A model generated the notes under the pieces. The model was not told the origin of the DNA. It searched no databases and worked only from the letters and a program-made list of their open reading frames with translations. Of a DNA stretch of 64,000 bases, positions 3,500 through 50,312 are shown in pieces. The stretch covers positions 31,333 through 95,332 of the forward strand of contig JACPHC010000010.1 in NCBI GenBank assembly GCA_016188775.1. The letters are read 5' to 3'. How positions within the stretch are numbered: position 1 is the stretch's first letter; each line of letters begins with the position of its first letter. A program made the translations under genes and the position numbers. The DNA is from Parcubacteria group bacterium (GTDB lineage: Bacteria; Patescibacteriota; Minisyncoccia; JACPHC01).

Positions 3500-5593
3500 T
3501 TACATTTCCTTAAAATCGCAGGTTTTGTTTGAGCACTTTATTTGATTTCTCAAAGTTTTGACCAAAAGGGAGCCGCATTGGGGACATTTTTGGCCGGTGG
3601 GTTCGTCCCAGAGGGCAAAATCGCATTCCGGATACCTGGAGCAGCCGTAAAAAAATTTTCCTTTTCTGGTCCGTTTTTTAACGATTTCGCCTTTTTCGCA
3701 TTTCAGGCATTTAAGGCCAATGGTATTTTTAATCGGTTTGGCGTTGCGGCATTCCGGAAAGCCGGTGCAAGCCAAAAATTTTCCGAATCGGGACATTTTT
3801 ATCACCATCGGTTTGCCGCATTTTTCGCAAACTTCTTCGGTTTTTTCCTCTATTTTTTCTTTTTTGACTTCCTCATATTTTTCTTCCAGATTTTTTTTGA
3901 AAGGGCCGTAAAAATCATTAAGCAGCGTTTCGTATTTTATTTCGCCTTCGGCGATTTTATCAAGCCCTTCTTCCATTTGGGCCGTAAATTCCAAATCAAC
4001 TATTTTGGGAAAATGTTGGACGAGAATTTTATTGACTAAAATTCCCATTTCGGTCGGAGCCAGTCTTTTTTGATCGTTTTTTTGAACATAGCCGCGTTCT
4101 TGGATAGTGGAAAGAGTCGGAGCGTAAGTGGAGGGGCGGCCAATGCCGTTTTTTTCCAACGTTTTAATCAAAGAAGCTTCGGAATATCGGGCCGGCGGTT
4201 CTGTAAAATGCTGGAGAGGTTTTAATTCAAGAAGTTTGAGTTCGTCTTTTTCTTTGAGTTCGGGCAGAATTATTTCTTCTTTTTTTGACGGGTAAATTTT
4301 TAAAAAGCCGTCGAATTTAATAATGGAACCGCTGGCCCGAAAGATGTGTAATTTTTTATCAACATCGTTTTTGGCCTCGATGTCGTAATGCGTGTTTGAG
4401 AAAACGGCGTCGCTCATTTGCGAGGCGACGAATCTTCTCCAGATGAGGTCATAGACCTTAAACTGGCGGCTGTCCAGATATTTTTGAACTGACTCGGGAG
4501 TTCTGATCGCTTCAGTCGGCCTAATGGCTTCGTGCGCTTCTTGGGCGGTTTTGGATTTGGTTTTGTATAATCTTTTTCGCCAATAATTTTCGCCCATCTC
4601 TTTTTTAATATAAGCTTCGGCCGATTCTTGGGCGGACTCGGCGATATTAAGCGAATCGGTTCTCATATAGGTGATCAGGCCGGTTGTCCCTTCTTCGCCG
4701 ATTTCAACGCCTTCATATAATTGCTGGGCGAGCATCATTGTTTGTTTGGCCGAGAAATGATATTTAGCCCAAGCTTCTTGTTGAAGGGTGCTGGTGGAAA
4801 AAGGCGGCGAGGGTGATTTATTTATTTCTTTTTTTTCAATTTTCGCGATCAGCCAATTCCTATTGGCTAAATTTTTTAAAATGTTTTCCGCCTCGTTTTT
4901 CGTTTTAATCGCGAATTTTTCCAAAACCTTATCGTCAATCTTGATCAGCAAAGCCTCAATCGTTATCTCGTCTTTTTTCGGTTTTAATAAAGCGGCGATC
5001 GTCCAGTATTCTTCCGGTTGGAAATTTTTAATTTCTTCTTCCCGTTCGACAATTAGCCGAACAGCGACAGATTGGACTCGGCCGGCTGACAAGCCTTTAG
5101 CCACCTTTTTCCATAAAAACGGAGAAAGCTCGTAGCCGACCAGGCGATCTAAAATTCTCCGGCCTTGCTGAGCGTTAACTAGATTCATATCAATTTCGCG
5201 AGAATGCTTTAGGGCGTTTTCAATGGCCGATTTGGTGATTTCATGAAAAACAATTCTTTCTATCGTTTTTTCTTTTTCTTTTTTCGTTTTGACCTCATCA
5301 AGGCCTAAGGCTTTGGCCAGGTGCCAGGCGATAGCTTCTCCTTCCCGGTCTTCGTCAGTGGCCAGAATAATATTTTCCGATTCTTCCGCCGCTTCTTTGA
5401 GTTCTTTAACGTGTTTTTTCGCTTTGGCGGGAATGATATATTTGGGAATAAAATTATGCTCGACATCCACGCCGATTTTACTTTTGGGCAGATCCCGGAC
5501 ATGGCCGTAAGAGGATTCAACGCGATAATCTTTCCCTAAAAATCGGGAAATTGTTTTGGCTTTGGTTGGTGATTCAACTATGACGAGTTTCAT
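3500..5593 (-). CDS. topA: DNA topoisomerase I
   Basis: Toprim N-terminus (KLVIVESPTKAKTI…ILATDEDREGEAIAWH); active-site Tyr region (GLITYMRTDS); three C-terminal CxxC zinc ribbons. Confidence 0.9.
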   Translation of the reverse strand: MKLVIVESPTKAKTISRFLGKDYRVESSYGHVRDLPKSKIGVDVEHNFIPKYIIPAKAKKHVKELKEAAEESENIILATDEDREGEAIAWHLAKALGLDEVKTKKEKEKTIERIVFHEITKSAIENALKHSREIDMNLVNAQQGRRILDRLVGYELSPFLWKKVAKGLSAGRVQSVAVRLIVEREEEIKNFQPEEYWTIAALLKPKKDEITIEALLIKIDDKVLEKFAIKTKNEAENILKNLANRNWLIAKIEKKEINKSPSPPFSTSTLQQEAWAKYHFSAKQTMMLAQQLYEGVEIGEEGTTGLITYMRTDSLNIAESAQESAEAYIKKEMGENYWRKRLYKTKSKTAQEAHEAIRPTEAIRTPESVQKYLDSRQFKVYDLIWRRFVASQMSDAVFSNTHYDIEAKNDVDKKLHIFRASGSIIKFDGFLKIYPSKKEEIILPELKEKDELKLLELKPLQHFTEPPARYSEASLIKTLEKNGIGRPSTYAPTLSTIQERGYVQKNDQKRLAPTEMGILVNKILVQHFPKIVDLEFTAQMEEGLDKIAEGEIKYETLLNDFYGPFKKNLEEKYEEVKKEKIEEKTEEVCEKCGKPMVIKMSRFGKFLACTGFPECRNAKPIKNTIGLKCLKCEKGEIVKKRTRKGKFFYGCSRYPECDFALWDEPTGQKCPQCGSLLVKTLRNQIKCSNKTCDFKEM

Positions 5594-6731: not shown

Positions 6732-6820
6732 TGAAACAATTTATACCGTAATTTAGCAACGAATGCAAATATCTTTTTTATTATTTTAATATTAAGATTG
6801 AAAGCGCTTTGCTTTACTAT

Positions 6821-6866
6821 ATTTCACTACAATGACCTCACGATCGTGAGGTCATTGTAGTGAATA
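6821..6866. repeat. perfect 42-46 bp palindrome (family C copy 1), TTCACTACAAT-GAC-CTCACGATCGTGAG-GTC-ATTGTAGTGAA
   Basis: Perfect palindrome centred on CGATCG between the mfd stop and the dprA start; second copy at 61307-61350 has a compensated 3-nt change. Confidence 0.8.
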
Positions 6867-6887
6867 ATTTACACTACTGGACGCCAG

Positions 6888-8840
6888 TTATTTTTTTAGT
6901 TTTTCAATCGCTTCATTGAGCAGTTGATAATAAAGATTCAATCCAACGGCATTAACGCAGCCGGATTGTTTGGCGCCAAGGATATTCCCGGCGCCGCGAA
7001 TTTTCAGGTCGGCCGTCGCGATTTCATAGCCGGCTCCCAAATGAGACATCTGACGCAAAGTCTCCAGCCGCTTTTTGGCTTTTTCCGGAATGCTTAAAGA
7101 GCGGTAAAGAAAATAAGCAAAAGCTTGCCGGTTGCCCCGGCCTACCCGGCCTCTTAATTGGTGCGCTTCGGCCAGACCCAAAAGCGATCCTTCTTCAACG
7201 ATCAGGGTGTTGACATTGGCTAAATCCAGGCCGTTTTCAATGATGGTCGTGGCCATTAAAACTTGAATTTTTTTCTCTCGAAAGTCTTGAATGATTTTAA
7301 GCAGAGATTTCTCGTTCATTCGGCCGTGAGCCGTTTCTATTTTCGGCCAATTTCCATGGCGGTTTTTCTTTAAAATCTTGATCAGATTTTTCTTGGCCGC
7401 TTCAATGGTTTCAATTCGGTTATGCAAAAAGAAAACTTGGCCGCCTCTCTGAAGTTCGTAATTAATCGCCTCTTGAATTATTTTTTTTGAGAACGGCAGG
7501 ACAAAAGTTTTAATCGGAGTTCTGCCCAGGGGCGCCTCGTCAATTCGCGAAAGCGACCTTAACGAAGAAAGAGCCAAAGAAAGAGTGCGGGGGATAGGGG
7601 TGGCCGATAAGCTTAAAATATCCAAAACAGCGCGCATCTTTTTCATTTTTTCTTTTTGGCGCACGCCGAATTTTTGCTCCTCGTCAATTATCAAAAGTCC
7701 GAGATTTTTAAATTCGATGTCCGGAGAAAGCAGGCGGTGGGTGCCGATAATAATGTCAATTTTGCCGTTTTTTAAATCAGCCAGAGTCTGTTTTGTTTCT
7801 TTTTTGGAAAAAAGACGGGAAACGCGCTCGATATTCAAAGGGAATTTTTTAAGCCGATTTTTAAAAGTTTCAAAATGCTGTTGGGCCAGTATTGTCGTTG
7901 GCGAAATCAAGGCGACCTGCGATCCGTTTAGAGCTACTCGAAAGGCCGCGCGCAGCGCGACTTCGGTTTTTCCAAAGCCGACATCGCCGACGACAATTCT
8001 ATCCATTGGGCGTTGACTTTCCAAATCCTTAAAAATTTCACTAATCGTTTTCTTTTGGCTTTCGGTTTCTTGATATTCAAAAGAATCCGTTAGCATTATT
8101 TCTAGGTGTCGGTCCGGAACATAAGGTTTTCGGCCGACCATTTCTCTTTTGGCGTAAATAGCGATTAATTCTTTGGCAAATTCAATTATATTTTCTTTGA
8201 TTTTTTTTCTGGTATTTCCCCAGAGAGGGCTGCCCAAGCGGTGAATTTTGGGAGTTTCAAATCCAAGATACGGGCTGATTTTTTCTTTGAGTCCAAAAGG
8301 AACAAAAAGCAAATCCGGACGACCGCCGATTTTAGGCGGAGCGTATTCTATGATGAAATATTTATTTTGTTTTTTTTCTTGAACGCCCCGAAAGATTCCA
8401 ATGCCGTGATCCAAGTGGACGACATAATCGCCGAGATTAAAGACATCCTCTTTTGATTTTTTGGGCTTTTGCCCGGACAACGTTGTCGGCTCTATTTCAA
8501 TAATTTCTTCAAGCCGGTTGTTTTCAAAATCAAGCCTGATAATTTTTTCAGAGTTTATCGGAAAGATGTCAATAATGCCGCCTTGTTTGGAAAATTCGCC
8601 GGCGGAAAAAACTTTGGAAACTTTTTTGTAGCCCAAATCGTCAAATTGTTTTAAAAGCCGGCTGATGGCAATGTTGTCGTCTTTTCGCAAAAAAAGAGTG
8701 TTTTTTTGGAAAAAAATCTGGGTTTTGGCCGAATTTTTTATTTGATGAAAATTTTCCGAAAACCACAAAACGGGCTTTTCCAAAAAAGAGGGGGTAAGCC
8801 CGGCGATTAAAATTTCTTTTTGTCTGATTAAATTATTCAT
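6888..8840 (-). CDS. mfd: transcription-repair coupling factor Mfd-like helicase, short form lacking the UvrB-homology N-terminal module
   Basis: RNAP-interaction motif GDYVVHLDHGIGIF; Mfd-type Walker A GDVGFGKTEVALRAAF; DEEQKFGV; helicase C motifs (QLRGRVGRG); 650 aa versus ~1150 for canonical Mfd. Confidence 0.7.
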   Translation of the reverse strand: MNNLIRQKEILIAGLTPSFLEKPVLWFSENFHQIKNSAKTQIFFQKNTLFLRKDDNIAISRLLKQFDDLGYKKVSKVFSAGEFSKQGGIIDIFPINSEKIIRLDFENNRLEEIIEIEPTTLSGQKPKKSKEDVFNLGDYVVHLDHGIGIFRGVQEKKQNKYFIIEYAPPKIGGRPDLLFVPFGLKEKISPYLGFETPKIHRLGSPLWGNTRKKIKENIIEFAKELIAIYAKREMVGRKPYVPDRHLEIMLTDSFEYQETESQKKTISEIFKDLESQRPMDRIVVGDVGFGKTEVALRAAFRVALNGSQVALISPTTILAQQHFETFKNRLKKFPLNIERVSRLFSKKETKQTLADLKNGKIDIIIGTHRLLSPDIEFKNLGLLIIDEEQKFGVRQKEKMKKMRAVLDILSLSATPIPRTLSLALSSLRSLSRIDEAPLGRTPIKTFVLPFSKKIIQEAINYELQRGGQVFFLHNRIETIEAAKKNLIKILKKNRHGNWPKIETAHGRMNEKSLLKIIQDFREKKIQVLMATTIIENGLDLANVNTLIVEEGSLLGLAEAHQLRGRVGRGNRQAFAYFLYRSLSIPEKAKKRLETLRQMSHLGAGYEIATADLKIRGAGNILGAKQSGCVNAVGLNLYYQLLNEAIEKLKK

Positions 8841-31520: not shown

Positions 31521-31594
31521 TGGTCGGACCACCCGGAATCGAACCGGGGCTATACCCACCCCAAGGGTACGGACTGCCACTATCCGATGGTCCG
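31521..31594 (-). tRNA. tRNA-Pro (anticodon GGG), CCA encoded
   Basis: Folds by hand into a cloverleaf: acceptor CGGACCA/TGGTCCG, D-loop AGTGGCA, anticodon stem TACCC/GGGTA with loop TTGGGGT, T-arm CCCGG-TTCGATT-CCGGG, 3' ACCA. Confidence 0.8.
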
Positions 31595-46710: not shown

Positions 46711-47112
46711 ATGCAGCTCCATCAAATTCAGCCAATTCATAAAGGCAAAAAATCAAGGAGAATCGGCCGAGGGGGAAAGCGGGGCAGTTATTCCGGCCGG
46801 GGCATTAAGGGTCAAAGATCCAGAGCGGGCGCTCGGATCAGGCCGGCTATCCGCGATTTAATTTTACGGCTGCCGAAATTAAGAGGCGCCCGTTTTAAAT
46901 CTCTCAAAGAAAAATCCGTCGCTTTAAATATCAAAAAAATCGGAAGATATTTTTCCGATGGAGATAAAATTAATCTCGAGGCGTTAGAGAAGGCCGGACT
47001 AATAAATCGTTTTGGCGGGAAATTGCCGGAGGTGAAGATTATTGGCCAAAATTTTTCCGGTAAAAAATTTGAATTTGAAGGGATAAAATTATCTAAGAGT
47101 ATTAATAAATGA
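46711..47112 (+). CDS. rplO: ribosomal protein L15
   Basis: MQLHQIQPIHKGKKSRRIGRGGKRGSYSGRG. Confidence 0.9.
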   Translation: MQLHQIQPIHKGKKSRRIGRGGKRGSYSGRGIKGQRSRAGARIRPAIRDLILRLPKLRGARFKSLKEKSVALNIKKIGRYFSDGDKINLEALEKAGLINRFGGKLPEVKIIGQNFSGKKFEFEGIKLSKSINK

Positions 47113-48374
47113 AAATTCCGCGCGTTTTACAAGATCCGGATTTAAGAAAAAAGATTTTTTGGGTTTTAGCGATCCTGGCGGTTTTTAGATTGGCGGCTTC
47201 TATTCCGGTTCCCGGAGTCAATCCGGACGCTCTGCGGGCTTTTTTCGCCCAGAATCAATTTTTTAATCTTTTAAATTTATTTTCCGGCGGCGGACTGGAG
47301 AATCTTTCCATTGTTATGCTGGGCGTGGGGCCTTATATCACCGCCTCGATTATTATGCAGCTTTTTACGATTATTTTTCCTAAGCTTAAAGAGATGCATG
47401 AGGAATCGGGCGAGCAGGGCCGGGCTAAATTTAATCAATACACGCGTTATTTGACAGTCCCTTTAGCTTTCCTTCAGGCTTTTGGACTTATAAAATTGCT
47501 TTCCCGACAGGGAGTTTTTGGAGAGACGACAACTTTTTCTTTTATCACTAATCTTGTTGTCGTGGTGGCCGGCACTTTATTTTTAATGTGGCTGGGCGAA
47601 ATTATTTCCGAATATAAAATCGGCAACGGCATTTCTCTTTTGATCTTTGCCGGCATTGTCGCCCGTCTGCCAAGAGAAATTTTGAATCTAGCTTTAAGTT
47701 TCAATGTTTCCCAGTTGCCTTACATTATCGGTTTTGTTTTAATCGGCCTTTTAGTTATCGCGGCGGTGGTATTTGTCACCGAAGGTGAAAGAGATATTCC
47801 GGTTTCTTACGCCAAACGGGTTCGGGGAACGCGGATGTACGGCGGAATTTCCACTCATCTGCCGCTTCGGGTTAATCAGGCCGGAGTGATCCCGATTATT
47901 TTCGCTCTTTCGATTATACTTTTGCCGGGTATGATTGCCACTTTTTTATCAGCGGCTAAATTTGAAACTCTGGCTAAAATCGCCTCCAGTCTCGCCAATC
48001 TTTTCAATCGCCAGAGCTTTTACGGCGGCCTTTATTTTATTCTGGTTGTTGTTTTCACGTATTTTTACACGGCCATCGCTTTTGATCCCAAAAAAATATC
48101 CGAAAACATCCAGAAACAAGGCGGATTTATTCCCGGGATTCGGCCGGGCAGCCACACGGTTGATTATTTGTATAAAATAGTCAATCGGATTACTTTAGTC
48201 GGCGCTATTTTTCTCGGACTAATCGCGATTTTGCCGTTTATCGTTCAGACTTTTACCAAAATTAGCACTATTACCATTGGCGGCACCTCGCTTTTAATCG
48301 TGGTCAGCGTTGTTTTGGAAACAATTAAACAAATTGAAGCGCAAATGGTCATGCGCGAATATGATACCGTTTAA
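47109..48374 (+). CDS. secY: preprotein translocase SecY
   Basis: 10-TM profile; …GVNPDAL…GIMPYITASIIMQL-like segment. Confidence 0.9.
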   Translation: MKIPRVLQDPDLRKKIFWVLAILAVFRLAASIPVPGVNPDALRAFFAQNQFFNLLNLFSGGGLENLSIVMLGVGPYITASIIMQLFTIIFPKLKEMHEESGEQGRAKFNQYTRYLTVPLAFLQAFGLIKLLSRQGVFGETTTFSFITNLVVVVAGTLFLMWLGEIISEYKIGNGISLLIFAGIVARLPREILNLALSFNVSQLPYIIGFVLIGLLVIAAVVFVTEGERDIPVSYAKRVRGTRMYGGISTHLPLRVNQAGVIPIIFALSIILLPGMIATFLSAAKFETLAKIASSLANLFNRQSFYGGLYFILVVVFTYFYTAIAFDPKKISENIQKQGGFIPGIRPGSHTVDYLYKIVNRITLVGAIFLGLIAILPFIVQTFTKISTITIGGTSLLIVVSVVLETIKQIEAQMVMREYDTV

Positions 48375-48969
48375 AAAAGGAATTGTTATAGCTTTTTTGG
48401 GGCGTTCCGGGTCCGGCAAAGGAACGCAAGCGAATCTTTTGGCGAAAAAATTTAATTTGAGAATTATTTCGACGGGCAATCTGGCTCGCGATTTTTCCAA
48501 AGAGAAATCAATGAGCGGAAAATTAATCGCTCAAATCCTGGAAAAAGGCGGATTTTTGCCTCATTGGCTGGCCAGTTTTTTATGGATGAGAGAAATAATC
48601 CAGAGTCAAGAACCTTTTTTGAGAATAGCGTTTGAAGGGTCGCCCAGAAAATCGGGCGAAGCTCGCGATATTGACGAGGTTTTTAATTTTTACGGCTTGA
48701 AAAATAATATTATCGCGTTTTATATTAATATCTCTCGCCAAGAAGCGATTAAAAGATTGCTTGCCAGGGGACGGGAAGATGATACAAAAAAAGCCATTGA
48801 AAATCGGTTGGATGAATTTGAAAAATTTGTCATTCCGGTTATTGAATATTACAAAAAAACTAAAAGACTAATCACCATTAACGGTCAACAGAGCGTGGAA
48901 GATGTTTTTAAAGAAATCGTCAAAAAACTAAAAGTAAAGAATGATTGCTCGATCCGAAAACGAAATTAA
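48361..48969 (+). CDS. adk: adenylate kinase
   Basis: IVIAFLGRSGSGKGTQANLLAKKF (P-loop); ORF-track start at 48310 is probably too far upstream. Confidence 0.8.
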   Translation: MIPFKKGIVIAFLGRSGSGKGTQANLLAKKFNLRIISTGNLARDFSKEKSMSGKLIAQILEKGGFLPHWLASFLWMREIIQSQEPFLRIAFEGSPRKSGEARDIDEVFNFYGLKNNIIAFYINISRQEAIKRLLARGREDDTKKAIENRLDEFEKFVIPVIEYYKKTKRLITINGQQSVEDVFKEIVKKLKVKNDCSIRKRN

Positions 48970-49702
48970 AAAATTAAGAGAAGCCGGCGGTATTTTAGCC
49001 GTGATTTTAAACGATGTCGCTAAGAAAGTTGTTCCCGGCATCTCGACTTTTGAACTTGATCAATACGCCGAAGAAGCTATTTTAAAATCCGGCAGTCAGC
49101 CGTCTTTTAAGGGTTATCGTCCGTGGGGCGTGGCAACGGCTTATCCGGCCAGTCTTTGCGTTTCCGTAAACGATACGGTTGTTCACGGATTGCCTTCTCA
49201 AAGACGCTTGAAAGAGGGAGAGATTATTAGTCTTGATTTAGGCTTGGAATGGCAAGGGCTTTTCGTGGACGCGGCCTTGACCGTTTCGGTCGGAATTCCC
49301 TTGCCGGAAATAAAGAGATTTTTGGAAATTACAAAACATTCTCTTGACATTGGCGTTGAAAAAGCGAGAGTCGGCAATCATATCGGCGATATCGGAGCCG
49401 CTATTGCCGATTACGCGGAAAAAGCGGGTTATTCAATAATTCGCGAACTGGTCGGACACGGCGTGGGAGAAGCGGTGCACGAGCCGCCGCAAATCCCGAA
49501 TTTTGGCCGGCCCGGCTCCGGCCCTTTGATCTTGGAAGGCATGGTTCTGGCCATTGAACCGATGGTCAGTCTTGGAAAATTTGACGTGATTTTAGCCGAT
49601 GACGGCTGGAGCTGGAAAACTAAAGACGGCAGTTTGGCGGCTCATTTTGAGCATACGATTTTGGTGACTAAAGAAGGGCCGGAGATTCTAACTAAAATCT
49701 AA
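48941..49702 (+). CDS. map: methionine aminopeptidase type I
   Basis: …VVHGLPS…DLGLEWQGLFVDAA…ELVGHGVGEAVHEPP…. Confidence 0.9.
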   Translation: MIARSENEIKKLREAGGILAVILNDVAKKVVPGISTFELDQYAEEAILKSGSQPSFKGYRPWGVATAYPASLCVSVNDTVVHGLPSQRRLKEGEIISLDLGLEWQGLFVDAALTVSVGIPLPEIKRFLEITKHSLDIGVEKARVGNHIGDIGAAIADYAEKAGYSIIRELVGHGVGEAVHEPPQIPNFGRPGSGPLILEGMVLAIEPMVSLGKFDVILADDGWSWKTKDGSLAAHFEHTILVTKEGPEILTKI

Positions 49703-49716
49703 TTTGTAAAATTTTA

Positions 49717-49906
49717 CAGCGTTGTTTACATTATCCTGCAGGTAATGAGCGCGAAAACACGCTATCAAATTTCCCAGCGAGAAATTTTCGCTTGTTTTCG
49801 GGCTCGCTCGTCTCCCTGCGGGAGACACCTGCCCGCTCGCCTTGCGAGACAGCTTTCTTAGCTCATTACCTGCAGGATACAATACATAAAAGTGTAAACA
49901 ACGCTC
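49717..49906. other. ~190-bp structured element with long two-part terminal inverted repeat and GC-rich hairpin interior
   Basis: cagcgttgtttaca…ttatcctgcaggtaatgagc at the left pairs with gctcattacctgcaggatac…tgtaaacaacgctc at the right; inner hairpins tctccctgcgggaga and gcgagaaattttcgc. Confidence 0.55.
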
Positions 49907-49928
49907 GGAATTCTTAAATCTAATTATT

Positions 49929-50312
49929 ATGCGTTATCTTGGTGTTGATTTTGGGACGAAAAAAATCGGTCTGGCTATTTCCGACGAGAAAGGCCAGATG
50001 GCTTTTCCGCTTCAGACGATCCTTTATAAAAGCGATCGTTTTGTTTTCGCTCGGCTTAAAGAAATTGTTGAAAAAAATCAAATTGAGCGGATTGTGGCCG
50101 GATTACCCGTCAGCATTCAAAAAACTCAAACGGATATTTCAAAGAAAGTTGAAAGATTCGCTCAAAAACTTTCCCAATCGACTGATCTTTCCGTTGATTT
50201 TGAACGGGAATTTATGACTACTAAAATCGCCAAAATCAGTTCGTCTAAAAAAATTGACGAAGCCTCGGCGGCCTTGATTCTCCAAAGTTATTTGGACAGA
50301 AAGAATCGTTAA
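49929..50312 (+). CDS. ruvX: Holliday junction resolvase-like YqgF/RuvX
   Basis: MRYLGVDFGTKKIGLAISDE. Confidence 0.85.
   Translation: MRYLGVDFGTKKIGLAISDEKGQMAFPLQTILYKSDRFVFARLKEIVEKNQIERIVAGLPVSIQKTQTDISKKVERFAQKLSQSTDLSVDFEREFMTTKIAKISSSKKIDEASAALILQSYLDRKNR

Follow-up and report, generated by a model that had tools for sequence, protein, structure and literature searches.

The map-ruvX gap

In the 64-kb stretch of DNA that we analyzed (the window), map (48941-49702) and ruvX (also known as yqgF; 49929-50312) are encoded one after the other on the plus strand. The map gene encodes a type I methionine aminopeptidase. Both genes are intact, and the identities that were assigned to them in an earlier note on this DNA are confirmed by matches to PF00557 and PF03652, respectively, and by the NCBI names of the proteins. 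The two genes are separated by 226 bp.

Within this gap, the earlier note described a 190-bp structured element (49717-49906) bounded by a 34-bp composite terminal inverted repeat. A repeat finder recovered both pairs of arms. The outer arms (49717-49730 and 49893-49906) are 14 nt long and form 13 pairs; their outermost bases are a mismatched C/C. The inner arms are 20 nt long and form 19 pairs, with T/C at the outer end; we will refer to them as the closing stem, or P1. The left arm of P1 is TTATCCTGCAGGTAATGAGC (49731-49750) and the right arm is GCTCATTACCTGCAGGATAC (49861-49880). A 12-nt bulge (49881-49892) is present on the right side of the inverted repeat only. The 20-mer inner arm has two matches in the window, which are the two arms themselves, and none in 100 shuffles; neither the inner nor the outer arm has any further copy in the window. 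The 20-bp arm also has no matches in the GTDB species-representative genomes.

The interior is GC-rich, as described (55-60% G+C, versus 41% for the window), and it contains the hairpins tctccctgcgggaga and gcgagaaattttcgc. The predicted fold of 49710-49915 is very stable on either strand: -89.7 kcal/mol on the plus strand (z = -10.5 relative to shuffles) and -94.3 kcal/mol on the minus strand (z = -8.75). The only open reading frames inside the element are spurious ones of 41 and 64 amino acids.

Two features were missed in the earlier reading. The repeat extends further out, as far as 49705 and 49918, and just beyond it there is a 7-bp direct repeat, TCTAATT. The 190-bp inner part is real, but the element is 214 bp long (49705-49918). 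Likewise, the 34 bp of pairing are real, but they do not form a single unit: the outer arm is a transposon end, and the inner arm closes an unrelated internal module. It is this GC-rich module, sitting between the transposon ends and closed by a 20-bp stem, that gave the ends their composite appearance.

We propose that the 214-bp element is a MITE (miniature inverted-repeat transposable element) of an IS481-type insertion sequence (IS) that is common in Patescibacteria, and that it was inserted between map and ruvX. We estimate the probability of this at about 90%. MITEs are non-autonomous derivatives that are mobilized by a transposase supplied in trans. The earlier note had listed a MITE as one of several options. 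The evidence for it includes the ends, which match the terminal inverted repeats of an IS481-family IS, and a flanking 7-bp target-site duplication that is typical of this family. It also includes the autonomous partners that share these ends, elements with a homologous core at unrelated loci, and the element-free map-ruvX gaps of distant relatives.

A probable IS481-type insertion sequence with the same ends

We scanned metagenomes for an exact 18-mer, comprising the right arm and its conserved flanks (AAGTGTAAACAACGCTCG). The 18-mer matched 119 metagenome stretches (L090-L208), many of them at contig ends. Nearly all of these stretches share ...AAAAGTGTAAACAACGCTCGGAATTCTTACA around the match and then continue into unrelated sequence. 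In most of them, what precedes the arm is the beginning of an open reading frame on the minus strand, MTIHKRARLTP...

One stretch, L099, contains a complete IS of 887 bp (4410-5296), with inverted ends and a single open reading frame of 268 amino acids. About 20 near-full-length copies (887-889 bp) are present among the loci. These are 70-100% identical to each other, and many of them have an intact 268-amino-acid reading frame. Typical members of the IS481 family are longer than 887 bp.

The predicted protein is a transposase. In NCBIfam, its best match is NF033577 (IS481 family transposase; E = 4.5e-54), although its score of 183.9 bits is below the curated cutoff of 224. The next best match is to IS3 (E = 9.5e-21). 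In Pfam, it matches rve and rve_3, both above their cutoffs. NCBI uses the name "IS481 family transposase" for identical proteins from Kuenenbacteria, Falkowbacteria, and the Patescibacteria group, and one exact transposase sequence is present on 54 contigs. The 887-bp IS occurs widely among Patescibacteria (CPR bacteria).

The terminal inverted repeat of the family is 27 bp long, with the consensus TGTAAGAATTCCGAGCGTTGTTTACAC, and the outer 14-bp arm of the earlier note is its inner half. In a fuzzy search, the right end of the window's element matched the consensus at 26/27 positions and the left end at 21/27, in inverted orientation. The right repeat (49892-49918, minus strand; reverse complement TTTAAGAATTCCGAGCGTTGTTTACAC) includes the outer arm at 49893-49906, and its one mismatch to the consensus is at the tip, which is TTT instead of TGT. 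Apart from the tip, it is identical to an end of the 887-bp IS in L099, and it corresponds to the end that is proximal to the start of the transposase. The left repeat (TGTAAAATTTTACAGCGTTGTTTACAT; 49705-49731, plus strand) includes the outer arm at 49717-49730 and has six mismatches to the consensus. It resembles the end that is proximal to the transposase's stop codon (compare TGTAAGAAATCAGCGCGTTGTTTACAG from the full IS in L099). Between P1 and the right repeat lies an unpaired spacer, aatacataaaa (49881-49891), and its final AAAA continues the IS-end consensus of ...CACTTTT.

The window contains a single copy of the element, with no second copy of the element or of its ends. Related copies are found at unrelated loci in other organisms. 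Using tblastn with the IS transposase as the query, we found no transposase in the window. Because of the change from TGT to TTT at one tip, the six mismatches at the other end, and the lack of a transposase in the 64-kb window, the window's copy is probably a fixed and immobile relic.

The interior of the element (49731-49891) is not a deletion derivative of the IS, which counts against its being a MITE of this IS. The single copy in the window, the lack of a transposase there, the below-cutoff score and short length of the partner IS, and the lack of GTDB matches to the inner arm also count against it. Between its transposon ends, the element has no IS-derived sequence; this space is taken up by the GC-rich module and its 20-bp closing stem. 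Separately, we noticed that the sequence around the spacer (49879-49892; ACAATACATAAAAG) is identical to codons 2-5 of the family's transposase (ATG ACA ATA CAT AAA AG), but in the opposite orientation to the IS end beside it. The identity may be due to chance, or it may be the remnant of a rearranged IS fragment.

The IS family also has longer variants. L168 (8931-9901) and L100 (2494-3467) contain forms of 971-974 bp. The transposase from L168 has 296 amino acids; 28 additional residues directly follow MTIHKRAR and close with another copy of ARLTPVQRREIF, which resembles the outcome of an internal duplication or of an insertion close to the 5' end.

Target-site duplications

We searched both strands for the 27-mer, allowing mismatches, and paired up the ends, which yielded 49 distinct two-ended elements of 89-974 bp. 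Exact 7-bp duplications flank only 13 of the 49, which is a further point against our proposal. All 13 duplications fit the pattern NNTWANN, the third base being T and the fifth A. As a control, we compared flanks that were offset by 20 nt, which gave no exact duplications. The elements with exact duplications include full-length ISs (in L106, L110, L120, and L143) as well as MITEs of 173-472 bp.

The window's duplication, TCTAATT, fits this consensus. The left copy (49698-49704) contains the stop codon of map (TAA, 49700-49702), and the right copy (49919-49925), which is an exact repeat of it, ends 3 nt before the ATG of ruvX (49929). We also considered a 13-nt flanking direct repeat as the duplication, but this was narrowed to 7 bp once the true tips of the element were known. 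If the element and one copy of the duplication are removed in silico, then the junction becomes TAA-TTATT-ATG, with a spacer of just 5 nt between map and ruvX.

This suggests a mechanism for the insertion. The transposase would have been supplied by the IS481-family IS of ~887 bp, whose 268-amino-acid DDE transposase is predicted to recognize the 27-bp terminal inverted repeats (TGTAAGAATTCCGAGCGTTGTTTACAC...). This enzyme would make staggered cuts, 7 bp apart, at NNTWANN. The target, TCTAATT, would have spanned the stop codon of map, in what was then a 5-nt gap between the genes. Repair would have duplicated the 7 bp and left ruvX pushed 221 bp away from map. Thanks to the duplication, map would have kept its stop codon and ruvX its start codon.

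The map-ruvX locus in relatives

Among 5.8 billion proteins, we identified only one close relative, in the Logan assembly SRR22387820; its Map is 78% identical and its RuvX is 69% identical to those in the window. A query for records identical to the window's RuvX returned nothing. Downstream, this relative has ruvX-GT2-galT-TIM-PGK. Its two contigs (L082 and L089) both end in the map-ruvX gap, and they contain exact copies of the outer arm (CAGCGTTGTTTACA and TGTAAACAACGCTC) without the inner arm. We considered whether the outer arm is conserved at this locus, but the insertion point, the flanks, and the interior all differ between the two organisms; the arm is simply a transposon end. The ends in the relative belong to the same family but show no visible duplication. 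Given their different position and interior, they probably reflect an independent insertion. Both contigs break ~46-57 nt inside the insertion, so it is possibly a full IS.

More distant relatives, with 58% identity to Map, have map, then two inserted open reading frames, and then ruvX-GT2-galT-TIM-PGK. In L084, the region that is homologous to 49703-49928 of the window is at 6759-7761 (the same arrangement is present in L083 and L085-L088), and it contains a minus-strand reading frame of 89-95 amino acids and another of 216-241 amino acids. The larger one has a weak match to the IS200-like Y1_Tnp (E = 1.6e-4; 22.2 bits, with the cutoff at 23). The hairpin ctgagatccgatctcag is present in three copies, around and inside this reading frame, which has the appearance of a gene for a REP-associated tyrosine transposase (RAYT) accompanied by its REP hairpins. 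A RAYT-like gene in this same gap suggests that the gap is a repeated landing site for different mobile elements.

For comparison across greater distances, we used loci from GTDB that were selected by similarity to Map. At ~50% identity, these are unusable for aligning the gap, but they are usable for synteny. Three distant Parcubacteria (L006, L013, and L016) have map, ruvX, and GT2 in that order. In distant Parcubacteria, the element-free gaps between map and ruvX are 3-30 nt (3 nt in L013 and 30 nt in L006). In contrast, two loci from Patescibacteria or Peribacteria (L076 and L044) have the canonical order, in which map is followed by infA-, rpsM-, and rpsK-like reading frames.

These comparisons bear on whether the element marks a breakpoint, as the earlier note had suggested: a rearrangement or deletion might have removed infA-rpmJ-rpsM-rpsK-rpoA from downstream of map. 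The window's gene order does differ from the canonical order that is seen in L076 and L044. But the order map-ruvX-GT2 is shared with the 58% and 78% relatives (both of which have galT-TIM-PGK after GT2), and also with L006, L013, and L016, which have short gaps and no element. Since this order is common to distant Parcubacteria, the loss of infA and rpsM after map must long predate the insertion. Furthermore, removing the element and one duplication restores a tight junction between the genes. We therefore view a breakpoint as very improbable. The gene order is ancient in this clade and is independent of the element.

Another way to account for the element is as a native regulatory hairpin of a map-ruvX operon, acting in cis as a terminator, an attenuator, or a processing site for RNase III. 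The plus-strand hairpin is very stable, and since the flanking genes are co-oriented, transcripts that read through from map would contain the 34-bp interrupted stem. There is also a terminator-like hairpin followed by TTGTTTTC at 49776-49792. However, terminator-like sites are not in excess, with three found versus 1.9 expected from shuffles. In none of the relatives that we examined is the element conserved between map and ruvX, and its sequence is demonstrably derived from a transposon. A native regulatory role is improbable; if the element does affect regulation, it would do so as a by-product of having inserted here. In particular, the strong hairpin in a read-through transcript and the weak terminator-like site are possible side effects of having a MITE between these genes. 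We also considered a promoter inside the element, but a promoter scan identified none, and the only matches were weak ones that were found by eye.

A folded core with covarying stems

The GC-rich module inside P1, which we will call the core (49751-49860; minus strand), is the short form of a sequence that recurs elsewhere. It has a helix whose strands are CGAAAACA (49752-49759) and TGTTTTCG (49793-49800), and it includes a hairpin in which AAATTTC (49767-49773) pairs with GAAATTT (49781-49787) around an invariant loop, CCAGCGA (49774-49780). The invariant sequence CTCGCTC (49803-49809) is followed by a short central hairpin (49810-49826), by another invariant sequence, TGCCCGCTCG (49830-49839), by a small hairpin (49836-49848), and by TTTCTTA (49854-49860). 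At the site of the short central hairpin, the long forms of the core carry a domain of 150-190 nt. The window's core is a short variant that lacks the central domain.

Using BLAST and nhmmer, we found the core in five other distinct elements at unrelated loci. Short forms are present in L133 and L191, and long forms are present in L165, in L171, and at a locus that is represented by L132, L135, L170, and L139. Every copy lies inside an element that is bounded by the same IS ends, and searching all of the loci with nhmmer and profiles of the core did not identify any copies outside of such elements. As judged by eye from the reading frames nearby, the neighbors of the core-bearing elements in other organisms are housekeeping genes that are unrelated to each other: nifS/nifU/ferredoxin, dnaG, rtcB, and trmD. 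In viral contigs, the 18-mer and two motifs from the core gave either no matches or chance matches within coding sequence.

Across the six copies, CCCAGCGAG, CTCGCTC, and TGCCCGCTCG are invariant. The stems, in contrast, change sequence and remain paired. The closing stem of ~20 bp has a wholly different sequence in each copy but is still complementary, with 12 of 16 pairs changed on both sides. The 8-bp stem under the CCAGCGA loop is AAATTTCC, CAAAATCC, GAAAACCC, or ATTTTGCC, depending on the copy, and these differences are compensatory. In the minus-strand alignment of the six copies, 88% of cells are paired, as compared to 35-46% if the partners are slid relative to each other, and 25 of the 51 pairs have changed on both sides. 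None of 500 shuffles reached these values. The covariation set is limited to six independent sequences, and a single alignment served both to derive the structure and to test it.

Helix H4 has 13 G.U pairs if it is read from the minus strand, but just one if it is read from the plus strand. This bias suggests that the strand that folds is probably the minus strand of the window, running inward from the end that is proximal to the transposase's start. The mismatches in the closing stem show no strand bias. The long forms have an invariant hairpin loop, GCCGCTGGAGC, that is complementary to the CCAGCG loop. Since the window's copy lacks the central domain, it also lacks this proposed kissing partner.

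Other classes of MITEs with the same ends have unrelated interiors that are equally well folded (z = -6 to -14). For instance, L102 (1689-2160) and L147 (2022-2493) contain a 472-bp class with a different interior of 57% G+C (z = -9 to -14). This interior includes a GGCGGC-CGCTGGA-GCCGCC hairpin, whose loop matches the invariant loop in the long forms of the window's type of core. This loop may be a module that is common to several classes of MITEs.

The core does not match any described RNA family that we searched for. In a scan with all 4,227 Rfam families, including the transposon-associated motifs, there were no matches at the gathering score in the entire window. At E ≤ 10, the element and the long form in L132 gave only noise (Ysr206 at E = 0.6; PyrR204, CRISPR-DR23, and GRIK4 at E > 4). 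We also considered some specific candidates. A variable closing stem around conserved hairpins is reminiscent of the noncoding RNA of retrons, but by inspection of the reading frames, the neighbors of all six core-bearing elements appear to be housekeeping genes, and none of them looks like a reverse transcriptase. Domain 5 of group II introns, RNase P, and SRP were rejected as well, as their defining motifs are absent and Rfam was silent.

The earlier note had also suggested a small RNA. For the element as a whole at this locus, a small RNA is at most a candidate: no Rfam family matches the element, and it is not conserved between map and ruvX in relatives. But the core does covary across copies in other genomes. 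So, it is conceivable that the MITE carries a functional molecule, a structured RNA or a structured single-stranded DNA that is made up of the core and its closing stem (49731-49880); this would complement our proposal, not replace it. Such a molecule might regulate transposition, or it might be processed into a small RNA. It may be read from the minus strand, which is the direction from the IS end that carries the transposase's promoter, and in the long forms, it may form a loop-loop contact between CCAGCG and CGCUGG. The maintenance of single-stranded motifs in six copies whose stems change sequence yet stay paired, the proportion of paired cells and the 25 two-sided changes (0/500 shuffles were as high), and the G.U pairs in H4 all point in this direction. 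So does the complementarity of GCCGCTGGAGC to CCAGCG, along with the similar loop in L102 and L147, whose interiors are otherwise different. On the other hand, template switching can make the two arms of an inverted repeat co-evolve without selection, and the signal comes from only six sequences and an alignment that also provided the structure. Strong folding may be a general trait of MITEs, given that the other classes fold as well. The closing stem's mismatches do not favor either strand, and a promoter scan of the minus strand gave no call. Also, the core does not always face the same way with respect to the two IS ends: it is reversed in L191, and in L133 the same type of end is found on both sides. 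Finally, the window's copy is without its central domain and hence without a kissing partner. On balance, we consider a functional molecule to be a tentative possibility.

Similarly, it seems rather unlikely, but worth stating, that the core and its covarying 20-bp stem are a previously undescribed module, consisting of structured RNA or single-stranded DNA, which IS481-type MITEs carry around the genomes of Patescibacteria. The window's copy would then be a short variant that has lost the central domain by deletion. Such a module may control transposition or may be processed to a small RNA, and its CCAGCGA loop could kiss the CGCUGGA loop of the long forms.

Comparison to known elements

The partner IS resembles the IS481 family in having a single reading frame that contains an rve DDE domain and whose best match is the IS481 profile. 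It also has TGT...ACA termini and terminal inverted repeats of ~27 bp, and the stop codon of the transposase lies within one of the repeats. Members of the IS481 family have TGT...ACA termini and target-site duplications of 2-15 bp, most commonly of 6 bp (PMC10045372), so the family consensus termini (TGTAAG...CTTACA) with 7-bp duplications are within the IS481 pattern. The 7-bp duplications at NNTWANN do differ from the most common length (PMC10045372). The partner IS is also very compact (887 bp, with a 268-amino-acid reading frame), and its profile score is below NCBIfam's cutoff. Unlike an IS481 member, the element in the window does not encode a transposase. We found no description of IS481 MITEs from CPR bacteria in the literature.

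Other bacterial MITEs with folded interiors include the Correia elements of Neisseria and the ERIC (or IRU) elements of enterobacteria. These are intergenic, non-coding elements of 100-350 bp, with terminal inverted repeats and target-site duplications, and they form long hairpins when transcribed. They have short and long variants, which differ by internal insertions or deletions. The window's element is similar in that it is short, non-coding, folded, and located between genes, has terminal inverted repeats and a target-site duplication, and belongs to a set with short and long variants. It differs in the sequence of its terminal repeats, in the family of the transposase, and in being found in Patescibacteria. 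Also, its interior is not a simple palindrome: the loops of this GC-rich module are invariant, and its stems covary. Structured RNAs in Rfam have conserved loops and covarying stems as the core does, but none of those families match it.

Overall, the element is ordinary mobile DNA, but it carries an undescribed and conserved folded core, whose function is putative. For annotation, our interpretation removes a false lead, as the site would be neither a breakpoint nor a native small RNA gene; instead, an insertion has split the tightly coupled map-ruvX pair by 221 bp. For CPR bacteria, our analysis defines a compact and presumably active IS of the IS481 type and a variety of MITEs, along with the 27-bp ends of this family and its 7-bp NNTWANN target. 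The core, with its covarying stems, may represent a new structured nucleic-acid motif.

The definitions of the IS and the MITEs can be used to mask repeats that break assemblies of CPR genomes, as several contigs end inside these elements. Contigs from short reads often end within an IS or MITE or at its edge: examples are the end of L082, the start of L089, and many of L090-L208, and many of the matches to the 18-mer are less than 100 nt from a contig's end. The window organism's own Logan contig (L001) ends at position 49787 of the window, on the 3' side of the CCAGCGA hairpin. This family of elements probably fragments CPR assemblies.

Other features of the window

Although the window includes a ribosomal-protein/secY cluster, it does not have any Rfam match at the gathering score. 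The window has one tRNA only, Pro-GGG (31521-31594, minus strand). Upstream of map, the longest reading frame for adk (48310-48969) begins at 48310 with TTG and shares 65 nt with the end of secY (47109-48374). On the identical Logan contig, the adk gene was called as a shorter protein of 202 amino acids, which suggests that the real start of adk is probably downstream.
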